A stretch of 64,000 nt of DNA from Catenovulum sp. SX2 (GCF_052056295.1 NZ_CP182493.1:2123989-2187988), one strand, 5' to 3'; numbered from the stretch's first letter, positions 3,608-35,719 are shown. Notes: generated by a model not told the origin, from the sequence alone. A program made the numbers and translations.

Positions 3608-6600
3608 ATGAAACATAATAATAGTAAGATTTGCACAGCAATCCTTGCAGCATTAGCTACGGGTGCTTTTACACCGTCATATGCTAATGAAGAACCAACG
3701 GAAGTTATCCAAGTAAAAGGGATAAAAAGTTCATTAAAAGAAGCAGCATTCAGAAAACAAAACGCAACTGTTGTACAAGAAAGCATAGTTGCAGAAGATA
3801 TTGGTAAATTCCCAGACCAAAACGTTGCTGAGTCACTACAACGTATTACCGGTGTGTCGATTTCACGGGTAAATGGCGAAGGTTCACAAGTATCAGTGCG
3901 CAGTTTTGGCCCGGAATTTAATATGGTCAAACTCAACAATCGTACCTTAGCAACCACAAGTGGTGGCCGTAGTTTCGATTTCCAATTATTGCCATCAGAA
4001 CTGATCGCAGGTGCGGATGTTAAAAAGTCAGCTTCAGCAGATATGGCAGCAGGCAGCATAGGTGCCTACATCAATGTTCGTACAGCTCGCCCACTCGACA
4101 GCACAGGTTTGCATGTAACAGGTGCGGTAAAAGCCAACCAACAAAGTTTGGCGGGTGATACCAATCAAGAAATGTTTGGTTTAGTCAGCAACAGTTTTGC
4201 GGATGACACATTTGGCGTACTCGTTGGTGTTTCTTACAAAGAAACCAGCTCACGCATTGATAAATACCGCAGCTCACATTGGAATCAATTTGCCAATGGT
4301 TGGGGTGCATATAATCCAAGTGTGATTGCCAACGACGAGGGTGGTTACGACTCAGCGCCAGGTTATGGTATTCCAGGGTATTTTGACTCATCAGATTTAG
4401 ACCATGTTTATGACTCAAAGGGCAATTTAATCGTCGCGCGCGATGGCAATGGCGACCCAGTTACCGACAACCAAGGAAACTATTTAGACAGTAGCGGTAA
4501 TCTAGTTGCAGCTCGTGGTCCAGGGCGTAGCATTTTCAGCATGACAGACGAAGAACGCAAACGTATTGGTTTTAATGCAGTTTTGCAATTTGCACCGTCA
4601 GACGAATTTGAAGCAACAGTGGATTTACTCCACACTAAATTAGAACGCAAACATTTAGGTTCAGGTTTACAAGTGCCAAACCAAACCGCCAATGCTTATA
4701 CCAGTGTAATGATCAGTGACACTGGCACTTTGTTAGCCGGCACAATTCGCGACACAGACGTAGAGATGAATGTCGATTACGGCAATCAAGAATCAACCAC
4801 ATCAGCCATAGGTTTTAACGCAGTTTATCGCCAAGACGCATTAACCTTAGAATTTGATGCATCTTATTCAAAAGCTAAAACAGATTATGAAGGTGATGAC
4901 ACAACTGCGCTGCACTACACTCGCTACACCTCAGCTACCAATGAACATGGCTGGAACGGTGAAACCAATACAAGTTTAGTTACAGATGATAACGGTGATC
5001 CTGTATACAGTTTAATCGCTATGGATTATTCAACTGATGTACCTTCAATGTTAGTTACCGGTATGGATTTAACTGACATTTCACAAGTACGTGCGGCATG
5101 GCAAAGATACGCTGGTTACGAAAGTGAAGATGAAGTTAAACAAGTACAATTTGATGCCTTATATGAAATAGATACAGGCATAGTCACATCAGTTAAAGCA
5201 GGTGTTGCATACGAAGACCGCAGCATTTCTTCTGTTAACTTAGGTACTGAATTTAATGCAGTAACAGGCGCAGAAGATTGGGATGGCGCAGGCATGTGGA
5301 TTGGTGACGGTGCAACCTGGGGCCCAAGCGCCGCAACCGGTATTTTGCCAGCGGGTGTGCTTGAGCTCAGTGCTAGCGACTATATGGATGGCATTTCAGG
5401 TGTATTCCCGCGCCAGTGGGTACAAGTAACAGATCACGATACATATCGAGCGGCCACTCAAAAAATGTTAGAAGACATGATTGAAGCAGATCCTGACGGA
5501 CAAGGCTGGCGCTCTGGCAAAGTGGATGCAGGCTGGGACACTTTACATCCAAGTGCAACAGGTTACGTAAACGACGAATCTACTGTATCTGCTTATTTAC
5601 AAACGAATTTAGAAGGTGAGTTAGCCGGTTTTGTCTGGAATGGTAATTTAGGCGCCCGTTACCTGTCGGTCGACAACACTGCCAGTGGTAAAGCTTCGAA
5701 AATAGAAGAGTTACAACTAGCCTCAGGCACGGTTGAAAATGGCAAATATGTTTCTGTCGACAATACCGCGAGTACTTCAGCGCAAGCAGAAGTGGTGAAA
5801 ACCAGTGAAGAACACTTTTTACCAAGCGCAAACTTTAGCATTAACTTCGACAATGGTATTTATTTGCGCACAGCAGCGGCTAAAACCATTACTCGCCCGT
5901 CATTGTCTGATGCAAGCGTGTATTACACAGAAGCACCAGGGTTAGACGCACCTATAGTTGCTATATCTGGTGGTAACCCATATCTAAAATCGTACAAAGT
6001 GAATCAATTTGATTTGTCGTTAGAATATTACGCAGACAACGGCGATGCATACTCTGTTGGCTACTTCTACAAAGACATCTCAAACTTTATTTCAACCGTT
6101 ACTAAACTTGGCACTTGGGATGGCCCAGTATCAAGCGAATTAATGGATGCATACGCTGATTTAAACGTTAATCGTATTGGTTATACCTCTAACCGCAAAG
6201 AAAACCGTCCAGGCGGTTCGGTGCAAGGTTTAGAAATTGGTTTATTACACCACTTTGATTATTTACCGGGTTTATTAAGTGGTTTAGGTGTGCAAGCTAA
6301 CTACACCTATGCAGATAGCGAAGACAAAGACGCATTACCACTAAACACACCAGGTGTAGTTGAACCCGGCAGTGGTTTAGAAGGTTTTGCGAAAAATTCG
6401 TATAACGTTATCGCATTTTATGATCAAGATGGTTTCCAAGCTCGTGTAGCTTATAACTATCGTGACGCCTTTTTAAGCAGCCGTTCGGGTGATGGTATTT
6501 CGCCAGAATACAACGACGATTATGGTCAAGTTGATGTAAGTGTTTCATACGATATTACCGACAACATTACCATTGCAATGGAAGCGGTCAATCTAACCAA

Positions 6601-29245: not shown

Positions 29246-30856
29246 TTAGTTATTTAAACTTTGCCAATTCAAACCATATTTAGCCAAATATTTCTGTAGC
29301 CGTGTTGAATCGTTTACCGCTGATTTTTTAGTACGACTCACATCAAATAGTGCTCTGCCAGCAGCTGCCATATTCTTATGCTGCAAACAAATGCCCAAAA
29401 CGAAGTTTAGCTGATGCAACTCAAACTGATCCAGTTCAGCTAGCTGCTGTGGAGAAAGATATCTATCCAACGTCTGAAGCGCATTTTGATTGTCGCTAGG
29501 TTGCCAGCAAGACTCTAACCTAGTTATTTCACTCTTGATATCGTCAACCGATATTCTCGAACTATCTGCCAGTGTACACAACCGGGTAATGGCCGAACTT
29601 AAATCTCTAAAATTGCCAGACCATACTGCTTGCTCTGACACGGCAAAAGATTCAAACATGAGTCTAGCCTCCTTATTAAATTGGATGCGCTGACCTGTTT
29701 TGCTTTCATACAATCCAAGTTCGTAATCAATATTTGCAGATATGTCTTCTTTTCGATCTTTTAAAGCTGGTAGCTTATATGTCCATAAATTGATTCTAGC
29801 CAATAAATCTTCACGAAAACTGCCTTTTCGCACTTCCGCTTGTAAATTTTTATTGGTGCCCGCAATCAGTTGAAAATCACTGGTGACCATTTTATCGCTA
29901 CCAACTGGATGAAAACTTTTATTCTCGATAGCGTGTAACAACATAGCTTGTTCTTCGAGGCCGAGCTCAGCAATTTCATCTAAAAACAACATGCCTTTGT
30001 TCGCGGTTAGCAAATAGCCGTTGCGTTCTTTTTGCGCTCCGGTAAAAGCACCTTTGGTATGGCCAAACAATGCTGCCATAGCATTTTCACCTTTTAGCGT
30101 TGCACAGTTCACCGAAACGAACTCGCCCGGCAACATTGCACGTTTTTTCTTCAACTGAAATATACGAGATGCTAGCTGGCTTTTACCTGAACCTGTAGGC
30201 CCAGTTAGCAACATAGGATCGCGTGAGCGAACCGCTACTTTTTCAATTTGACTAATCAGTTGATTAAAGGCTTGGTTATTGGTTTGAATTCCACCTTTTA
30301 AAAACGCATTACCTTCTAAATGCTCTTTATCAAAACGCGTGGCTAATTGGTCATATTTAGATAGGTCGAGATCAATAATTTGCACTTTCCCCTGCGCTTT
30401 ATTTTTATTGTTTTTATCAGGGGACGTTTGAATTAATCGACCTGGGAAATGGCCACTTTCGGTCAGTAGAAAACTACAAATTTGAACTACGTGTGTACCT
30501 GTGGTTATGTGAAACAAGTAGTCGTTGTTTTCTGCATCAAACTGCTGTTTATGGCACCAGTCATATAATTTGGCATACACCTCCTCAAAGTCCCATGGGT
30601 CATTAAAATTCACATTATGCAACTCAACTTGAGTTTCAGGAGAAATGCTCTCAATGTCGGCAGCCACATTATTCGCCAAACGTGAACTATGGTTGTCATG
30701 CAACATATACAATTGATCTATCACCAAATCTTCTTGGCTACACAAGCTCACATTCGGACGCCATTTATCCCATCTATCAACTCGTTTACCAACATAATCT
30801 AGCTGAGTACCAATTAAACTAACCGCAATCGTTTTTTTCAAAACACACATATCCAA
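29246..30856 (-). CDS. rtcR: Sigma-54-dependent transcriptional activator RtcR (N-terminal CARF-like sensor domain, AAA+ sigma-54 interaction domain, C-terminal HTH)
   Basis: Collinear with E. coli RtcR over its full length (..VSLIGTQLDYVGKRVDRWDKWRPNVSLCSQEDLVIDQL vs ..FGFVGTVLDYAGRGSQRWSKWRPTLCLCQQESLVIDRL; Walker A LLTGPTGSGKS; GAFTGA; FLDEIAEL; C-terminal AAAGRALFDVSRTKKSAVNDSTRLQKYLAKYGL). Confidence 0.93.
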   Translation of the reverse strand: MDMCVLKKTIAVSLIGTQLDYVGKRVDRWDKWRPNVSLCSQEDLVIDQLYMLHDNHSSRLANNVAADIESISPETQVELHNVNFNDPWDFEEVYAKLYDWCHKQQFDAENNDYLFHITTGTHVVQICSFLLTESGHFPGRLIQTSPDKNNKNKAQGKVQIIDLDLSKYDQLATRFDKEHLEGNAFLKGGIQTNNQAFNQLISQIEKVAVRSRDPMLLTGPTGSGKSQLASRIFQLKKKRAMLPGEFVSVNCATLKGENAMAALFGHTKGAFTGAQKERNGYLLTANKGMLFLDEIAELGLEEQAMLLHAIENKSFHPVGSDKMVTSDFQLIAGTNKNLQAEVRKGSFREDLLARINLWTYKLPALKDRKEDISANIDYELGLYESKTGQRIQFNKEARLMFESFAVSEQAVWSGNFRDLSSAITRLCTLADSSRISVDDIKSEITRLESCWQPSDNQNALQTLDRYLSPQQLAELDQFELHQLNFVLGICLQHKNMAAAGRALFDVSRTKKSAVNDSTRLQKYLAKYGLNWQSLNN

Positions 30857-30993
30857 ATAGATAAAAACATATCTATATAACTACAAAAATAAAAAAGGTC
30901 AATTACCCCATGAGTTAACTCCAGGTCCCCAAAACAACTTTAAAATAATAAAAATCAATCACTTGTGATAATTCATTAAATTTAATTTTAGTT

Positions 30994-31008
30994 TGGCACA
31001 TGACTTGA
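30994..31008 (+). promoter_or_regulatory. Candidate sigma-54 promoter TGGCAC-N5-TTGA (imperfect -12 element) in the rtcR/rtc-operon divergent region
   Basis: Correct -24 GG to -12 spacing; -12 reads GA instead of GC. Located about 100 nt upstream of the first tRNA-like element. Confidence 0.3.
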
Positions 31009-31107
31009 TAACTAATACTTGTCTGGTTAAACGGTTGTGATTCAAAAAATCACTCTGGTGCGCTGAACTGTGTGAATGCGTATACCTAACCAAACATCCA
31101 AATACAT

Positions 31108-31180
31108 ATTTAAGTAGCTCAGCGGATAGAGCAGCGGTTTTCACCGCTGGTCGAAGGTTCAAATCCTTCCTTAAATACCA
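31108..31180 (+). ncRNA. tRNA-like RNA element 1 with a shortened anticodon loop
   Basis: The sequence folds as a cloverleaf. It has a 7-bp acceptor stem (ATTTAAG/CTTAAAT) followed by A-CCA encoded in the DNA, a D-arm (GCTC..GG..GAGC), a T-arm (GAAGG-TTCAAAT-CCTTC) and a 5-nt variable loop. The anticodon stem GCGGT/ACCGC closes only a 4-nt loop, so it cannot be a decoding tRNA. Confidence 0.65.
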
Positions 31181-31252
31181 AATTGGTAGCTCAAACTGGT
31201 AGAGCATCGAATGTAACTTCGAGTGTTGTGGGTTCAAATCCCACCCAAAAAA
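31181..31252 (+). ncRNA. tRNA-like RNA element 2, more degenerate
   Basis: D-arm (GCTC-AAACTGGTA-GAGC) and T-arm (GTGGG-TTCAAAT-CCCAC) are canonical. The anticodon arm TCGAA-TGTAAC-TTCGA has a 6-nt loop, the acceptor stem is only 4 bp followed by an A-run, and there is no CCA. Confidence 0.5.
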
Positions 31253-31304
31253 TGTAAATAAATAAAGTTAGCAAGCGTTTTTACCAATGGTTGTTAAACG
31301 CAAT

Positions 31305-31319
31305 TGGCAAATAAATAGC
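31305..31319 (+). promoter_or_regulatory. Candidate sigma-54 promoter TGGCAA-N5-TAGC (GG and GC with canonical spacing), 105 bp upstream of the SPFH gene
   Basis: Sequence aatTGGCAaataaaTaGCc read directly. It would drive SPFH-rtcB-rtcA-NTase. RtcR-dependent operons are sigma-54 transcribed in E. coli and Salmonella. Confidence 0.4.
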
Positions 31320-31423
31320 CGCAGGCGGGATGCCCCCAGCTATAAAAAACCATGCGCCTTTAGCAACAAAGTAATTAACCCTTGCTAGCACTTTGCGAAA
31401 GCAAGTGAGAAAAGGATAAAACC

Positions 31424-32578
31424 ATGATTAGAAAAACAATACATGTAGCAGAAAACCAACGTGTTTTAGTATTTAAAGATGAAAAATTAGCGCAAGTTTT
31501 ACCAGCGGGTAAACACACTATTTGGCACTTTAGACAACATTTAAACTGTGTAACCTTCGATATAAACGACTTATATTTTTCTGAGAAAAATGCTGAGCGT
31601 TTGTATCGAGACAACCCATGTTTACAGCAACACATTGCTTACTGGAAATTAACCAGCGATCAGGTCGGATTATTATACGTAGATGACCTACTCCAAGGCA
31701 TAGTCGCGCCAAGTGAACATCTATTTATATGGAAAGATGCTGGTGACATTCGCCTAGAAAGATGCTCAATTGATGACGAGCTTGCTGTGGATGAAAAGTT
31801 GATGTGCTTGATAAATCGTGCTGGCGCTAACTCAGCAAACCGACTTATTCGCAGCAAGAGTACAGTGGCAATTCAGCCTATTGCAGATTTATCCGTGGAT
31901 AAACAACACATAGGTTTGCTGTATATCAATGGCAAATTCAAACAAAAATTAGCGCCAGGCCAACATGCTTTTTGGCAATTTAATCAAACATTAGAGCTAA
32001 AATCCTTTGATTGCAGAACACAAATGTTAGAAATATCCGGTCAGGAAATTTTAAGTAAAGACAGAGTAAGTTTAAGAATTAATTTAAGCGCAAATATCAA
32101 AATTCAAGATGCAGAATTAGTCGCCAATAGTATAGATAAAGCAAACGACTATGTTTATAAAACTTTGCAGTTGGCGCTGAGAGAAGCGGTTGGCACTAAG
32201 TCATTGGACGATATTTTATTAGACAAACTCTATATCAACAGCACGGTTAAGGAGTTAGTCACTGAGCAATTAGCAGAAGTAGGTATCACGCTATTAAATG
32301 TTGGAGTAAAAGACATCATTTTGCCCGGTGAAATGAAAGCCATACTCAACCAAGTTGTTGAAGCACAAAAAGCCGCCGAAGCTAACGTTATCAAAAGACG
32401 TGAAGAAACGTCTGCAACCAGAAGCTTGCACAATACAGCCAAGGTGATGGAAAACAATCCAACGCTTTTGCGTTTAAAAGAATTAGAAGCATTAGAAAAA
32501 ATCGCCGACCGTATTGATAACTTAACAGTGTACGGTGGTTTAGAAGGATTAATGAACGGCGTAGTAAAAATAGCTTAA
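31424..32578 (+). CDS. SPFH/band-7 (slipin-like) domain protein, soluble, with three N-terminal ~40-aa internal repeats
   Basis: The C-terminal half matches the SPFH fold (LAEVGITLLNVGVKDIILPGEMKAILNQVVEAQKAAEANVIKRREETSATRSLHNTAKVM...LLRLKELEALEKIA). There is no TM segment. N-terminal repeats have the shape ..LPAGKHTIWHF.., ..APSEHLFIWKD.., ..APGQHAFWQF.. Confidence 0.75.
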   Translation: MIRKTIHVAENQRVLVFKDEKLAQVLPAGKHTIWHFRQHLNCVTFDINDLYFSEKNAERLYRDNPCLQQHIAYWKLTSDQVGLLYVDDLLQGIVAPSEHLFIWKDAGDIRLERCSIDDELAVDEKLMCLINRAGANSANRLIRSKSTVAIQPIADLSVDKQHIGLLYINGKFKQKLAPGQHAFWQFNQTLELKSFDCRTQMLEISGQEILSKDRVSLRINLSANIKIQDAELVANSIDKANDYVYKTLQLALREAVGTKSLDDILLDKLYINSTVKELVTEQLAEVGITLLNVGVKDIILPGEMKAILNQVVEAQKAAEANVIKRREETSATRSLHNTAKVMENNPTLLRLKELEALEKIADRIDNLTVYGGLEGLMNGVVKIA

Positions 32579-32606
32579 TCGCCAAAAAACGAATTAGGAA
32601 CAAATT

Positions 32607-33836
32607 ATGAGTACAAATTACAACCTTATACAAAATAAAGGCAGCGCGACAATAAAAGCTTGGACTAAAGGTGTACCTTTTGAAGAACAAGCACAACAAC
32701 AATTACAAAATATCGCAACTATGCCGTTAATTCATTCACATATCGCTGTTATGCCTGATGTGCACATGGGCAAAGGCGCAACAATTGGCAGTGTTATTCC
32801 ATCGGTCAATGCAGTTATTCCTGCCGCAGTAGGGGTAGATATTGGTTGTGGCATGGTCGCAACTAAAACCACCTTAACCGCCAGCCAGTTACCAGATAAC
32901 TTGTCTGGTATACGGCAGGCTTTTGAAGCAGCCATTCCGCATGGTAGAACAGGAGGACGCCGCCGAGGCTCCCGAGACAAAGGCGCGTGGCATAACATAC
33001 CTGATATTGTTGCAACTGAATGGCAAAAACTCGAAAAACGTTTTGAACATATTTGTGAAAAACACCCAGCTATAAAAAATAGCAACCATGTAAACCACTT
33101 AGGCACTATGGGTACAGGCAATCACTTTTTAGAATTGTGTTTAGACGAAAATAACGCAGTTTGGATAATGTTGCATTCAGGCAGCCGTGGCGTCGGCAAC
33201 AGAATTGGCACCTATTTTATTGAGTTGGCGAAAAAAGAAATGCAACGACATCAAATTAATTTACCAGATGTTGATTTAGCTTACCTTGAAGAAGGTAGTG
33301 AATATTTTGCTGACTATGTTGAAGCGGTTGAATGGGCACAAGATTTTGCTGCGAAGAATCGCGAAATTATGATGATTAATGCTATTGCGGCTTTGCGAAA
33401 ACAAATACCTGTTGCATTTTCAACAGCAGACTTAGCTGTAAATTGCCACCACAACTATATATCGCGTGAGCACCATTTCGGCAAAGACTGCTTTGTTACC
33501 CGAAAAGGCGCAGTTCGAGCACAAAAAGGTGAAATGGGCATAATCCCGGGCAGCATGGGTGCACGCTCTTACATAGTGAGAGGGCTTGGCAACCCAGAAA
33601 GTTTTAATAGCTGTAGCCATGGAGCAGGCCGGGTGATGTCGCGAACTCAAGCTAAAAAAGTCTACAACATTCAAGACCAAATTGATGCAACTCAAGGGGT
33701 TGAGTGCCGTAAAGATGCAGCGGTAATTGATGAGATCCCACATGCATACAAAGACATAGACAAAGTAATGCAAGCACAAAAAGACCTTGTTGAAGTGGTT
33801 TACACCTTAAAACAAGTTGTTTGTGTAAAAGGTTAA
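32607..33836 (+). CDS. rtcB: RNA-splicing ligase RtcB (3'-phosphate/5'-OH RNA ligase)
   Basis: Near-collinear with E. coli RtcB (HIAVMPDVHMGKGATIGSVIP, PAAVGVDIGCGM, GTMGTGNHFLE.C, HSGSRG.GN, NCHHNY, SCSHGAGR, C-terminal LKQVVCVKG). Confidence 0.95.
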   Translation: MSTNYNLIQNKGSATIKAWTKGVPFEEQAQQQLQNIATMPLIHSHIAVMPDVHMGKGATIGSVIPSVNAVIPAAVGVDIGCGMVATKTTLTASQLPDNLSGIRQAFEAAIPHGRTGGRRRGSRDKGAWHNIPDIVATEWQKLEKRFEHICEKHPAIKNSNHVNHLGTMGTGNHFLELCLDENNAVWIMLHSGSRGVGNRIGTYFIELAKKEMQRHQINLPDVDLAYLEEGSEYFADYVEAVEWAQDFAAKNREIMMINAIAALRKQIPVAFSTADLAVNCHHNYISREHHFGKDCFVTRKGAVRAQKGEMGIIPGSMGARSYIVRGLGNPESFNSCSHGAGRVMSRTQAKKVYNIQDQIDATQGVECRKDAAVIDEIPHAYKDIDKVMQAQKDLVEVVYTLKQVVCVKG

Positions 33837-33851
33837 ACATAAGGAATTTTA

Positions 33852-34886
33852 ATGTCATTTATACAAATTGATGGCGCACAAGGAGAAGGTGGCGGACAAG
33901 TTCTACGAACAGCTTTAACTCTGTCCGCAATCACCAAGCAGCCATTTGAGTTATGCAACATACGCGCAAATAGACAAAAACCTGGGTTGTTGCGTCAGCA
34001 CCTAACTTCAGTATTAGCAGCTCAACAGGTATGCAATGCAGAGGTTGAAGGCGCCGAACTAGGTTCACAAAAAATTGTGTTTACCCCTAATACAATTACC
34101 GCAGGCGAATTTGAATTTTCGATAGGAACAGCTGGTAGTACTGTGTTGGTTTGCCAAACCATACTGCCAATTTTAGCACTGGCAGAAACAGGCTCAGTTA
34201 TCAAATTTGAAGGAGGCACACACAATGGAATGTCGCCTTCATTGTGTTTTTTACAGCAGAGTTATTTGCCACTATTGCGCAAAATGGGTGTACAAAGTGC
34301 CGTAACAGAGGGCAAATATGGCTTTTACCCTGCTGGCGGCGGCAGCTGGAAACTTGAAATCACGCCAGCCAAGAAATGGCAACAACTGCATCTGAATGAA
34401 CAGGCAAACTTGCCGCAACAACACTTAGAGAGTGGCCAAATTAAGGTTTTATTGAGCAGTTTGCCAAATAACATAGCGGAACGAGAAATTACCACTGCAA
34501 AAAAGTATTTAAATTGGCCTGACGCGCAAGCACAAATAAAGCAAGTAAGAGCCAACGGCCCTGGCAATAGTTTTCAAATTTCACTACTGAGTAAAAACCA
34601 CAATAGTGTTTTTGAAGTGATTGGTGAGTTAAGGGTTTCAGCAGAGCAAGTGGCTAAACGCTGCGCAGGGCGGGTCAAAAAGTTTATTCAGGCAAATGCT
34701 GCAGTAGAAGAGCATTTGGCTGACCAACTTTTATTGCCTATGGCTCTAGCTGGCGGTGGTTGCTTTACAACTACAAAACCGAGCTTGCATACACAAACAA
34801 ATATTAAAGTCATTCAACAGTTCGTCAATATTGATATACAAGTGAATCAAATAGACGAGTTATTGTGGGAAATTACCCTTAGGTGA
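33852..34886 (+). CDS. rtcA: RNA 3'-terminal phosphate cyclase RtcA
   Basis: IDGAQGEGGGQVLRTALTLSAITKQPFEL.NIRANRQKPGLLRQHLT matches the RtcA N-terminus. YLADQLLLPMALAGGG is the C-terminal signature. Confidence 0.93.
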   Translation: MSFIQIDGAQGEGGGQVLRTALTLSAITKQPFELCNIRANRQKPGLLRQHLTSVLAAQQVCNAEVEGAELGSQKIVFTPNTITAGEFEFSIGTAGSTVLVCQTILPILALAETGSVIKFEGGTHNGMSPSLCFLQQSYLPLLRKMGVQSAVTEGKYGFYPAGGGSWKLEITPAKKWQQLHLNEQANLPQQHLESGQIKVLLSSLPNNIAEREITTAKKYLNWPDAQAQIKQVRANGPGNSFQISLLSKNHNSVFEVIGELRVSAEQVAKRCAGRVKKFIQANAAVEEHLADQLLLPMALAGGGCFTTTKPSLHTQTNIKVIQQFVNIDIQVNQIDELLWEITLR

Positions 34887-34924
34887 TGAACAAAAAATGA
34901 AGCGATAAGTAAGGAATAATAACA

Positions 34925-35719
34925 ATGCATCAGATACCAGCAGAAGTTAGAGAGGAAATACTGAGCAGAATAAAAGCCGCTGAAGCAGAACATCAGGTCA
35001 AGGTTTTATACGCGGTCGAGTCCGGTAGCCGAGCTTGGGGGTTTGCTAGCCCAAACAGTGATTATGATGTCAGGTTTATCTACGTACATCCAAAAGATTG
35101 GTATTTAGCCGTCAATCTTGAAGATAAACGTAATGTAATCGAATACCCAATAGTCGATGAAATAGATATAAATGGTTGGGACATACGTAAAGCACTCAAG
35201 CTTTATTGGAAATCTAACCCGGCTTTTATCGAATGGTTGCAATCACCCATAGTGTACCTTGAGCAAGGTGATTTTGCACAACAGGCTCGCAGTTTAATGC
35301 CACAAACAGTGTCATCAAATAAAGGTATTCACCATTATTTGCACATGGCCAAAAACAACTTTCGAGAATATTTGAAAAAAGACACTGTACCGCTTAAAAA
35401 GTATTTTTACGTGTTACGTCCTTTATTGGCAATTGCCTGGTTAGAGAAATACAACACCCCAGCACCAATAGAGTTTGATGTTTTACGTAAACTTGTTGCC
35501 GACAACAAAGCATTAGACAGTGCGATAACTGAGCTGCTAGAGCGTACAAAAGTCAGCTTAGAGAAGGAATACGCACCAGCTGTGCCTGTAATAAATCAAT
35601 TTATTCAAACTGAGCTGGAGCGCCTAAAAACGGCCAACTTAACTGACAAAGCAACCGATAGAGAAGTTAGTTTCGACCAACTAAACACGCTGTTTAAACA
35701 TGTGATAGATCACGAGTAA
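34925..35719 (+). CDS. Pol-beta-superfamily nucleotidyltransferase (PF10127/COG3541-like predicted nucleotidyltransferase)
   Basis: NTase motif GS-x9-13-DxD (VESGSRAWGFASPNSDYDVRFIY). 264 aa. Immediately follows rtcA with a 38-bp gap on the same strand. Confidence 0.7.
   Translation: MHQIPAEVREEILSRIKAAEAEHQVKVLYAVESGSRAWGFASPNSDYDVRFIYVHPKDWYLAVNLEDKRNVIEYPIVDEIDINGWDIRKALKLYWKSNPAFIEWLQSPIVYLEQGDFAQQARSLMPQTVSSNKGIHHYLHMAKNNFREYLKKDTVPLKKYFYVLRPLLAIAWLEKYNTPAPIEFDVLRKLVADNKALDSAITELLERTKVSLEKEYAPAVPVINQFIQTELERLKTANLTDKATDREVSFDQLNTLFKHVIDHE

Follow-up and report, generated by a model that had tools for sequence, protein, structure and literature searches.

A Band-7 / b7a-tRNA operon for RNA repair under RtcR control in Catenovulum sp. 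SX2

A system of Band-7 protein, b7a-tRNA, RtcB and RlaP was described by comparative genomics in 2016 (Burroughs and Aravind 2016, NAR), and it is considered here as presented in two papers that cite that work (10.1101/312249, PMC12776372). As outlined there, the module consists of a soluble Band-7 protein, a tRNA-like RNA upstream of it and RtcB and RlaP as neighbours, and it is proposed to be a counterpart of Ro60 and Y RNA. The first of these papers (10.1101/312249) places b7a-tRNA and Band-7 next to RtcB and gives b7a-tRNA as unvalidated as of 2018; no later study validating b7a-tRNA or an SPFH-RNA complex was found in the literature searched. The rtc locus of Pseudomonas aeruginosa has the same layout and parts as the locus described below (PMC13086221). 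The rsr-yrlB-yrlA-rtcB-rtcA locus of Salmonella is under RtcR/sigma-54 control and encodes RtcB and RtcA; between its promoter and the enzyme genes it carries an RNA that includes a tRNA-like module. In E. coli, rtcR-rtcBA consists of the regulator, a sigma-54 promoter, the ligase and the cyclase.

The DNA analysed here, a stretch of 64,000 nucleotides from Catenovulum sp. SX2 (hereafter the window), contains a real RNA-repair operon under RtcR control that belongs to the Band-7 / b7a-tRNA type. In this operon a soluble protein resembling stomatin and RNAs shaped like tRNAs take the positions of Ro60 and Y RNA. All the parts listed in an earlier note on this DNA, i.e., rtcR, two tandem tRNA-like RNAs, a 384-aa SPFH protein, rtcB, rtcA and a PF10127 nucleotidyltransferase, are present where it had placed them, and its reading of the locus as a variant Rtc module, with an SPFH protein partnering the tRNA-like RNAs in the position of Salmonella Ro60 and Y RNA, is supported by the tests run. 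The novelty that it implied for the combination has to be given up, as the same combination is found in the 2016 system and in the P. aeruginosa rtc locus. Since the arrangement was already described in 2016, the locus represents a known class and is unexceptional within it.

Compared with the Band-7 / b7a-tRNA module as outlined in the citing papers, nothing essential differs; the present locus has two tandem units with loops of 4 and 6 nt and, in its leader, a conserved 5' domain and an apex hairpin. The rtc loci of P. aeruginosa and P. fluorescens encode the same five proteins (RtcR, PaFlo8 = PA14_60630, RtcB, RlaP and RtcA) with a divergent rtcR, and four Pseudomonas loci have two tandem tRNA-like units 5' of the SPFH gene, as here. 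In Pseudomonas, however, the gene order is rtcB-rlaP-rtcA instead of rtcB-rtcA-rlaP, the tRNA-like units have UUCG-type tetraloops, and the SPFH proteins are about 40% identical to the one described here. All the features of the Salmonella locus named above are shared, but there is no TROVE protein here and the RNAs are ordinary cloverleaves, in contrast to the circularly permuted fold of YrlA. The E. coli locus, unlike this one, lacks a scaffold protein, a partner RNA and RlaP. The absence of Ro60 reported in the earlier note was confirmed over the whole window, as no TROVE domain was found in the 27 large ORFs scanned, including every ORF of at least 300 aa. A Ro60 (Rsr) / Y RNA module was rejected on this result and on a YrlA match that stays below the gathering score (see below).

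The regulator gene rtcR (29246-30856, minus strand) codes for a CARF-like sensor, an AAA+ sigma-54 activator domain and an HTH (Pfam RtcR 272 bits, Sigma54_activat 165 bits), and its product scores 765 bits against the NCBIfam RNA_repair_RtcR equivalog with a cut-off of 650. At 30994-31009 on the plus strand lies the promoter-like site TGGCACATGACTTGAT, which matches 10 of the 11 specified -24/-12 consensus positions and which we infer from its sequence to be a sigma-54 promoter facing the operon. Comparable sites (at least 9 of 11 matches) are present in 32/32 rtcR-divergent intergenic regions, and in loci with SPFH as the first gene and a detected tRNA-like unit, it is always 89-190 nt upstream of the first unit. 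The CARF domain of RtcR binds 5' tRNA halves or fragments ending in a 2',3'-cyclic phosphate, which switches RtcR on, and RtcA is required for RtcR-dependent induction (PMC7790460). The promoter site faces the leader with both tRNA-like RNAs, which is followed by the SPFH gene, rtcB, rtcA and rlaP. A sigma-70 promoter belonging to the SPFH gene, regarded in the earlier note as a sign that the gene is foreign to the module, is not apparent: neither a sigma-70-like promoter nor a terminator was detected on the plus strand between 31000 and 31424.

Both properties of RtcR would also suit a feed-forward loop, in which the tRNA-like RNAs of the operon are themselves cleaved and their cyclic-phosphate fragments act on the CARF domain to amplify induction; in 21 examined loci the RNAs directly adjoin rtcR. 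The short loops of the RNAs in this window nevertheless argue against efficient cleavage, and in loci without rtcR the RNA goes with the SPFH gene and not with rtcR, so that we regard such a loop as very improbable.

The two tRNA-like RNAs are the only tRNA-type matches in the window. The first, of the b7a-tRNA type (31108-31180, plus strand), is a full cloverleaf (Rfam tRNA 60.8 bits, family model R1 70.2 bits, fold z-score -3.5) whose acceptor stem has 7 bp. CCA is encoded, a UUUC tetraloop replaces the anticodon loop, and ARAGORN reports this unit as 'tRNA-???'. The second follows directly (31181-31253, plus strand; Rfam tRNA 41 bits at 31183-31248, R1 61.8 bits at 31180-31253); its acceptor stem is of 4 bp and its loop, UGUAAC, of 6 nt, and CCA is missing. 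The Rfam bacterial Y RNA model (YrlA, RF02553), suggested as a check in the earlier note, reaches 34.9 bits where the gathering score is 69, and the match straddles the junction of the two cloverleaves. All YrlA matches are of this kind (33-37 bits vs 69), each combining the T arm of one unit with the D arm of the next. Among 55 units the cloverleaf is kept by compensatory changes, with 94% of cells pairing and 19/21 pairs varying on both sides, a level of covariation matched by 0/500 shuffles.

For comparison, 80 loci from other species were collected, 77 of which could be tested for the RNA. In 73/77 the SPFH gene is preceded on its own strand by a tRNA-like RNA, and this co-conservation spans Gamma- and Betaproteobacteria and beyond. 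The genes adjacent in the 80 loci include those for RtcB (44), RtcR (33), RtcA (19) and RlaP (18), their linkage recurs in several gene orders, and four close relatives keep the cassette among unrelated flanking genes. The co-conservation of the SPFH gene with the RNA and with rtcB, rtcA and rlaP, which the earlier note had made a test of its reading, is thus strong. It could still be supposed that an unrelated insertion brought in the SPFH gene and that the tRNA-like RNAs are tRNA pseudogenes in decay, as SPFH proteins are usually membrane scaffolds with no link to RNA and the NCBI annotation of this one is just 'slipin family protein'. Such a chance arrangement is already contradicted by the comparative data, namely the frequency of the RNA-SPFH pair, the strong covariation of the RNA and the recurring rtc linkage, and is hardly conceivable.

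The RNA and the SPFH gene stay together also in the order rtcB-rtcA-[tRNA-like]-SPFH and where there is no rtc gene nearby. No rtc gene is found within 7 kb in 35/80 loci, or in 15/46 when loci with full 7-kb flanks are considered, and the pair may therefore have a role independent of RtcB. The anticodon loops of the family are often of 3-6 nt or stable tetraloops, whereas a normal 7-nt loop, often CUCAUAA, is found in roughly one half of those units that are proximal or single. These observations bear on the idea that the tRNA-like RNAs, perhaps shielded or displayed by an SPFH assembly, are uncleavable competitive inhibitors of anticodon nucleases instead of repair cofactors. The replacement of the 7-nt loop in many units that retain the D arm, T arm and acceptor stem would agree with it, as would the frequent occurrence of the SPFH-RNA pair without rtc genes and next to tRNA arrays. 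However, the units with a normal loop would be cleavable, stoichiometric inhibition would demand high RNA levels, and why a large SPFH oligomer should be needed is left unexplained; we consider a decoy function unlikely.

The SPFH gene (31424-32578, plus strand) encodes a stomatin-type SPFH/Band-7 protein of 384 aa (Pfam Band_7 at residues 157-328, E 2.5e-30). The highest hydropathy is only 1.35 (Kyte-Doolittle, 19 residues), and hence there is no membrane segment. Of the three N-terminal repeats proposed in the earlier note, two (residues 1-72 and 73-145) are extra copies of the beta-strand segment that opens the SPFH domain, whereas the third (146-215) is the start of the domain itself (hhalign 98-99%). 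The AlphaFold2 model (mean pLDDT 86.9) has long C-terminal helices, and in structural comparison it matches stomatin, HflK/C, prohibitin and major vault protein best; the predicted fold is stomatin-like, with helices that form rings of 16 to 44 subunits in solved homologues. A canonical membrane SPFH scaffold (HflK/C, QmcA, YqiK) was rejected, as a membrane segment is lacking, the HflK equivalog scores 41 bits, short of its cut-off of 159, and no NfeD gene is adjacent. Deletion of PaFlo8, the orthologue-type gene of P. aeruginosa, was without effect in assays of growth, virulence, motility, biofilm and oxidative stress, a set without RNA-damaging conditions. In Anabaena, translational stress jointly derepresses rtcB, a tRNA operon and a slipin protein that may or may not belong to the SPFH subfamily of the locus (PMC10272220).

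The three enzyme genes follow on the same strand, with gaps of 28, 15 and 38 nt from the SPFH gene onwards. The ligase gene rtcB (32607-33836) gives a full-length match to Pfam RtcB (427.7 bits), and rtcA (33852-34886), for the RNA 3'-terminal phosphate cyclase, scores 255.5 bits for Pfam RTC and 407 against an NCBIfam equivalog cut-off of 352. Downstream of rtcB-rtcA lies rlaP (34925-35719), whose translation contains 'GSRAWGFASPNSDYD', the Pol-beta GS..D.D motif. The Pol-beta nucleotidyltransferase of the earlier note (PF10127) is therefore retained, and it is of the RNA-ligase-associated RlaP family (298.5 bits, positions 2-247 of 249) and not a CCA-adding enzyme. RlaP has been characterised biochemically: it adds 1-2 nucleotides at damaged RNA 3' ends, and its products are 3'-OH ends, which RtcB cannot ligate directly (PMC12776372).

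Taken as a whole, the locus is probably an RtcR/sigma-54-dependent Band-7 / b7a-tRNA operon whose SPFH protein and tRNA-like RNAs form a ribonucleoprotein that serves as a cofactor or scaffold in tRNA repair. The tRNA-like units would be excised from the leader by tRNA-processing enzymes, as suggested by the full acceptor stem and encoded CCA of unit 1, and the freed RNAs would bind the SPFH protein. As 4- and 6-nt loops replace the 7-nt anticodon loop, the RNAs could not take part in decoding, and anticodon nucleases should leave them intact, so that they could persist while real tRNAs are cut. Stomatin, HflK/C, prohibitin and flotillin rings as well as the vault share the SPFH core and build closed rings or cages from long C-terminal helices, and the protein described here probably assembles in the same way, like every solved SPFH relative, into a ring or cage that would be soluble for want of a membrane anchor. 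Both oligomerisation and RNA binding of this subfamily are inferred from homology. The vault particle, composed of major vault protein, vault RNA and the TROVE protein TEP1, is likewise a soluble cage with an SPFH-like domain after beta repeats and carries a small RNA. Our best guess is a soluble stomatin- or vault-like ring holding the tRNA-like RNAs as a tRNA-repair cofactor; it would assist RtcB, RtcA and RlaP in repairing tRNAs cleaved in the anticodon loop and would be a functional counterpart of Ro60-Y RNA, reminiscent of the vault. Against this reading count the 3'-OH products of RlaP, the lack of an effect of the PaFlo8 deletion and the loci that have no rtc gene nearby.

The RNA of the operon extends beyond the tRNA-like units, as the whole leader of about 400 nt from the sigma-54 promoter to the SPFH gene is conserved structured RNA in this clade. 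A 5' domain (31019-31100, plus strand) with a GUGAUU..AUCAC hairpin and a GGUGCGC..GCGUAUACC helix is kept in 12/12 clade loci with invariant columns and compensatory changes. The long hairpin at 31267-31389 (plus strand, fold z-score -3.3) has the apex GCAGGCGGGAUGCCCCC at 31321-31337, a 3-bp stem with an NGGAN pentaloop that is invariant in 12/12 clade loci; 9/13 of the hairpin's pairs show compensatory changes, and the observed covariation was reached by 0/500 shuffles. Neither element has a match in Rfam.

These elements might act mainly in cis, on processing, stability or translation of the operon mRNA, e.g., as points of entry for RNase P or RNase E or as a CsrA/RsmA-type GGA hairpin controlling SPFH translation, and not as a partner RNA in trans. 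All of them lie within the 5' UTR, downstream of the sigma-54 promoter and ahead of the start codon of the SPFH gene, and structure is conserved over the whole leader. The apex is a GGA-containing pentaloop on a short stem, similar hairpins occur in leaders of the Pseudomonas clade, and an NGGAN pentaloop hairpin is found in 21/72 leader gaps vs 8.9% of control windows. The apex is only a partial fit to the CsrA consensus, though, the full covarying cloverleaf is kept in very distant lineages with otherwise unrelated leader sequences, and the tRNA-like unit travels with the SPFH gene regardless of the position of the promoter. A leader acting chiefly in cis is for these reasons rather improbable, and we keep to a partner RNA acting in trans. 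It is a tentative and rather unlikely extension of this that the partner RNA is modular, comprising over about 400 nt a 5' three-helix domain, one to three tRNA-like units and a long hairpin with a GCA-RGC-NGGAN-GCY-NCC apex, and that the extra domains dock the SPFH cage or a regulator such as CsrA. If so, the product would be a bacterial ribonucleoprotein resembling the vault and devoted to the repair of tRNAs.

The rtc locus of the window can be assigned with high confidence, in both its identity and its regulation, to the RtcR/sigma-54 repair operons of the Band-7/b7a-tRNA type. All the genes claimed for it in the earlier note were recovered (ORF list, Pfam, NCBIfam). On the minus strand lies rtcR (29246-30856; Pfam RtcR and Sigma54_activat; NCBIfam RtcR equivalog at 765 bits, cut-off 650). 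On the plus strand the SPFH/Band-7 gene (31424-32578), rtcB (32607-33836) and rtcA (33852-34886), all three identified from the ORF list and a domain scan, are followed by a nucleotidyltransferase gene (34925-35719), which in the HMM check matched PF10127 (RlaP). These four genes are separated by 28, 15 and 38 nt (ORF list). No TROVE domain was found in the 27 large ORFs scanned across the 64 kb window, all ORFs of at least 300 aa included, in agreement with the claimed absence of a TROVE/Ro gene. The reading of the locus as a variant Rtc module, with the SPFH protein and tRNA-like RNAs where Ro60 and Y RNA usually sit, is supported.

The Band-7/b7a-tRNA system is already described, and the window locus is not a new system. 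According to the passage of Wang et al. (10.1101/312249) that summarises Burroughs and Aravind (2016), Band-7/b7a-tRNA is occasionally swapped with Rsr/YrlA, at that time without experimental validation, and the same 2016 work gave RlaP its name (PMC12776372). No experimental study of b7a-tRNA was found in our literature search. The locus adds nothing new to the RNA-repair catalogue; it is a clean, compact example of the module, whose central question for ten years has been the role of a membrane-less stomatin-like protein and tRNA-shaped RNAs in RNA repair. The comparison of loci narrows this question to a core of SPFH gene and RNA, to RNAs that most likely belong to the RtcR/sigma-54 transcript, and to two further leader domains in the clade of the window and its close relatives.

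Exactly two tRNA-type elements were detected in the 64 kb window, both in the rtcR-SPFH intergenic region and both recovered by ARAGORN and Rfam, as expected from the tRNA-like RNAs noticed earlier upstream of the SPFH gene. In unit 1 (31108-31180, plus strand; 60.8 bits with the Rfam tRNA model) the acceptor stem is 7 bp long, CCA is encoded and a UUUC tetraloop stands where the anticodon loop is expected. In unit 2 (31183-31248, plus strand; 41 bits) the acceptor stem has 4 bp and the loop 6 nt, and CCA is absent. When 55 units from upstream of SPFH genes were aligned (MAFFT), 94% of cells held standard pairs and 19 of 21 pairs had changed on both sides; the paired fraction is inflated by the initial choice of the units with a tRNA finder, the compensatory changes are not. 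The observed covariation was reached by none of 500 shuffles, and slid controls were only 35-43% paired. The alignment argues for selection on the tRNA-like RNAs to keep the cloverleaf. Among the 55 units the D and T arms hardly vary and the outermost acceptor pairs are often broken, while anticodon loops are often other than 7 nt, with UUCG- or GNRA-type tetraloops in Pseudomonas and relatives and loops of 4 and 6 nt in the window. Tandem units occur in 27 loci, the window counted, and three relatives have three units; in such sets the CCA and the short loop tend to be on the upstream unit, with CCA usually absent from the downstream one. Copy number varies from one to three among close relatives (L081-L083 at 4591-4819; window 31108-31253).

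Membership of the YrlA/Y RNA family was ruled out, the matches being sub-threshold and the outer stems non-complementary. The Rfam YrlA model scored 34.9 bits on the window against a gathering score of 69, its match reaching from the unit 1 T arm to the unit 2 D arm. Sub-threshold matches of 33-37 bits (window 31123-31239; 4630-4693 in the Alteromonas mediterranea locus L082; 6611-6662 in locus L045) always join one unit's T arm to the D arm of the unit after it. The circularly permuted tRNA-like domain of YrlA has its arms in the same order, a possible hint of common origin.

Eighty SPFH loci from different species (L001-L080) were retrieved with an alignment of 42 SPFH family members as query. 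Adjacent to the SPFH gene, RtcB is found in 44 of them, RtcR in 33, RtcA in 19 and RlaP in 18, and all four occur together in 13. The gene orders include SPFH-rtcB-rtcA-rlaP (window), SPFH-rtcB-rlaP-rtcA (Pseudomonas), SPFH-rlaP-rtcB and rtcB-(rtcA)-SPFH. A covariance model built from the 55 upstream units located a tRNA-like element on the same strand, no more than about 1 kb upstream of the SPFH gene, in 73 of the 77 loci with upstream sequence; L009, L054 and L066 gave no convincing unit even with search filters off. The tRNA-like unit adjoins the SPFH gene regardless of the position of rtcB or of the promoter, which argues that the two form the conserved core of the module, an inseparable one as judged from the loci compared. 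No rtc gene lies within 7 kb in 35 of the 80 loci (15 of 46 among those with full 7-kb flanks), and in the SPFH loci without rtc genes no conserved downstream partner was found, the neighbours being unrelated or on the opposite strand. Stand-alone pairs of tRNA-like RNA and SPFH gene without an rtc gene are seen, for example, in L013, L015, L025, L039 and L051.

In four close relatives (Shewanella algae, Alteromonas mediterranea, Paraglaciecola marina and Flocculibacter collagenilyticus) the rtcR / SPFH-rtcB-rtcA(-rlaP) cassette is kept between unrelated flanks. This, with the frequent adjacency of RtcB, establishes co-conservation of SPFH with rtc genes in the relatives checked. A chance arrangement of the SPFH gene, the RNAs and the rtc genes is contradicted by the comparative data and can be excluded. 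In each relative examined the cassette has different flanks, which fits horizontal movement. In A. mediterranea it adjoins SAVED-domain and JAB-domain genes (L082 9669-11173) that resemble a defence system of the CBASS type.

The predicted promoter is a sigma-54 -24/-12 site, TGGCACATGACTTGAT (30994-31009, plus strand), which by itself is not significant in 64 kb. Each of the 32 rtcR-divergent intergenic regions examined has a -24/-12 site matching at least 9 of 11 positions, which lies 89-190 nt upstream of the first tRNA-like unit where the SPFH gene comes first and a unit was detected. On the plus strand, from the RNAs to the SPFH start codon, neither a sigma-70-like promoter nor a terminator-like hairpin was found, so the SPFH gene has no visible sigma-70 promoter of its own, a case the earlier note had weighed against its reading. 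Given this and the conserved sigma-54 site, the RtcR-dependent transcript most likely includes the tRNA-like RNAs. The site at 31305 (TGGCAAATAAATAGCC) was discarded as a second sigma-54 promoter: relatives do not keep its -24 GG, and the bases that are conserved suit a hairpin apex. The RtcR CARF domain binds 5' tRNA halves with a cyclic phosphate end (PMC7790460), and a rival explanation sees the RNAs as a feed-forward signal to RtcR.

In the clade of the window and 11 relatives (SPFH identity at least 53%) the 5' UTR keeps a conserved structure throughout its length. A 5' domain of about 80 nt (31019-31100, plus strand), situated between the sigma-54 site and unit 1 and kept in all 12 clade loci, has an invariant GUGAUU..AUCAC hairpin and GGUGCGC..GCGUAUNCC helix, which show compensatory changes. 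Between unit 2 and the SPFH start codon, a long hairpin of about 125 nt (31267-31389, plus strand) carries the apex GCA-RGC-NGGAN-GCY-NCC (31321-31337), invariant in 12/12 loci. Its outer stem covaries, with compensatory changes in 9 of 13 pairs, matched by 0 of 500 shuffles. Neither the 5' domain nor the long hairpin had a match in Rfam. The GGA pentaloop of the apex loosely resembles CsrA/RsmA-type GGA hairpins. The two domains offer concrete handles for mutagenesis and binding studies, and a further rival holds that the leader is purely cis-regulatory. The NGGAN hairpin is not a universal feature: with a stem of 4 bp or more it was found in only 21 of 72 leader gaps, though this is above the 8.9% in controls. 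Reading the apex as a small ORF or start codon was likewise rejected, as it lacks a conserved ATG. Pseudomonas-clade leaders have ggccAGGACggcc-type hairpins at the same place. In L003, L004, L005, L006 and L007 a lone T-arm-like hairpin, for example GGGTTCGATTCCC, precedes the first full tRNA-like unit, downstream of the 5' domain, with no other part of a cloverleaf.

The SPFH protein, 100% identical to a 'slipin family protein' of Catenovulum sp. SX2 (Alteromonadaceae), has no membrane segment (top 19-residue hydropathy 1.35), as had been claimed. The three N-terminal repeats reported for it are two extra modules plus the SPFH domain's own N-terminus: the beta-strand segment at 146-215, with which the SPFH domain opens, recurs at residues 1-72 and 73-145 (profile-profile, 98-99% probability). 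The AlphaFold2 model from 42 diverse family members is confident (mean pLDDT 86.9). Every solved relative, all outside this subfamily, forms a closed ring or cage via C-terminal helices, and the window protein retains the helices. The family is large, with 527 clusters (50% identity) at E <= 1e-30, most of them of about 380 aa, repeats included, and some of about 540 aa with more repeats. Such longer variants with added N-terminal beta repeat copies are encoded in L004 and L007 and include the family members P0002, P0017 and P0107.

In the model we prefer, the SPFH protein would form a soluble ring, stomatin- or vault-like, to which the processed tRNA-like RNAs bind, and ring and RNAs together would assist RtcB, RtcA and RlaP on cleaved tRNAs as a scaffold or cofactor. 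In a 2025 preprint (PMC12776372), RlaP of P. fluorescens and P. aeruginosa is shown to extend RNA 3'-OH ends by one or two nucleotides and to be capable of making over-trimmed tRNA functional again. A tRNA-like domain has been proposed as a possible anticodon nuclease inhibitor (PMC7790460), and the RNAs could instead be anticodon nuclease decoys. A 2026 survey places PaFlo8 in the P. aeruginosa rtc locus, its deletion having no phenotype in standard assays (PMC13086221).

In some ten species, canonical tRNA genes form a large array upstream of the SPFH gene, with the pair of tRNA-like RNA and SPFH gene at its end (L010, L013, L019, L032, L037, L044, L057, L062, L074 and L080, with 25 tRNA genes in L074; the SPFH gene is at about 7001 in most of these loci). 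This linkage suggests 'spare tRNA plus repair' islands. In an Anabaena trcR mutant, derepression of alr0739-alr0740 reaches 42- to 71-fold and is accompanied by that of rtcB and the trn tRNA-array operon (PMC10272220, Table 1); alr0740 (42-fold) is a 'slipin family protein', a likeness by annotation name, and alr0739 is the hypothetical gene upstream of it (PMC10272220). In L019 and L069, rtcB lies inside or beside the tRNA array.
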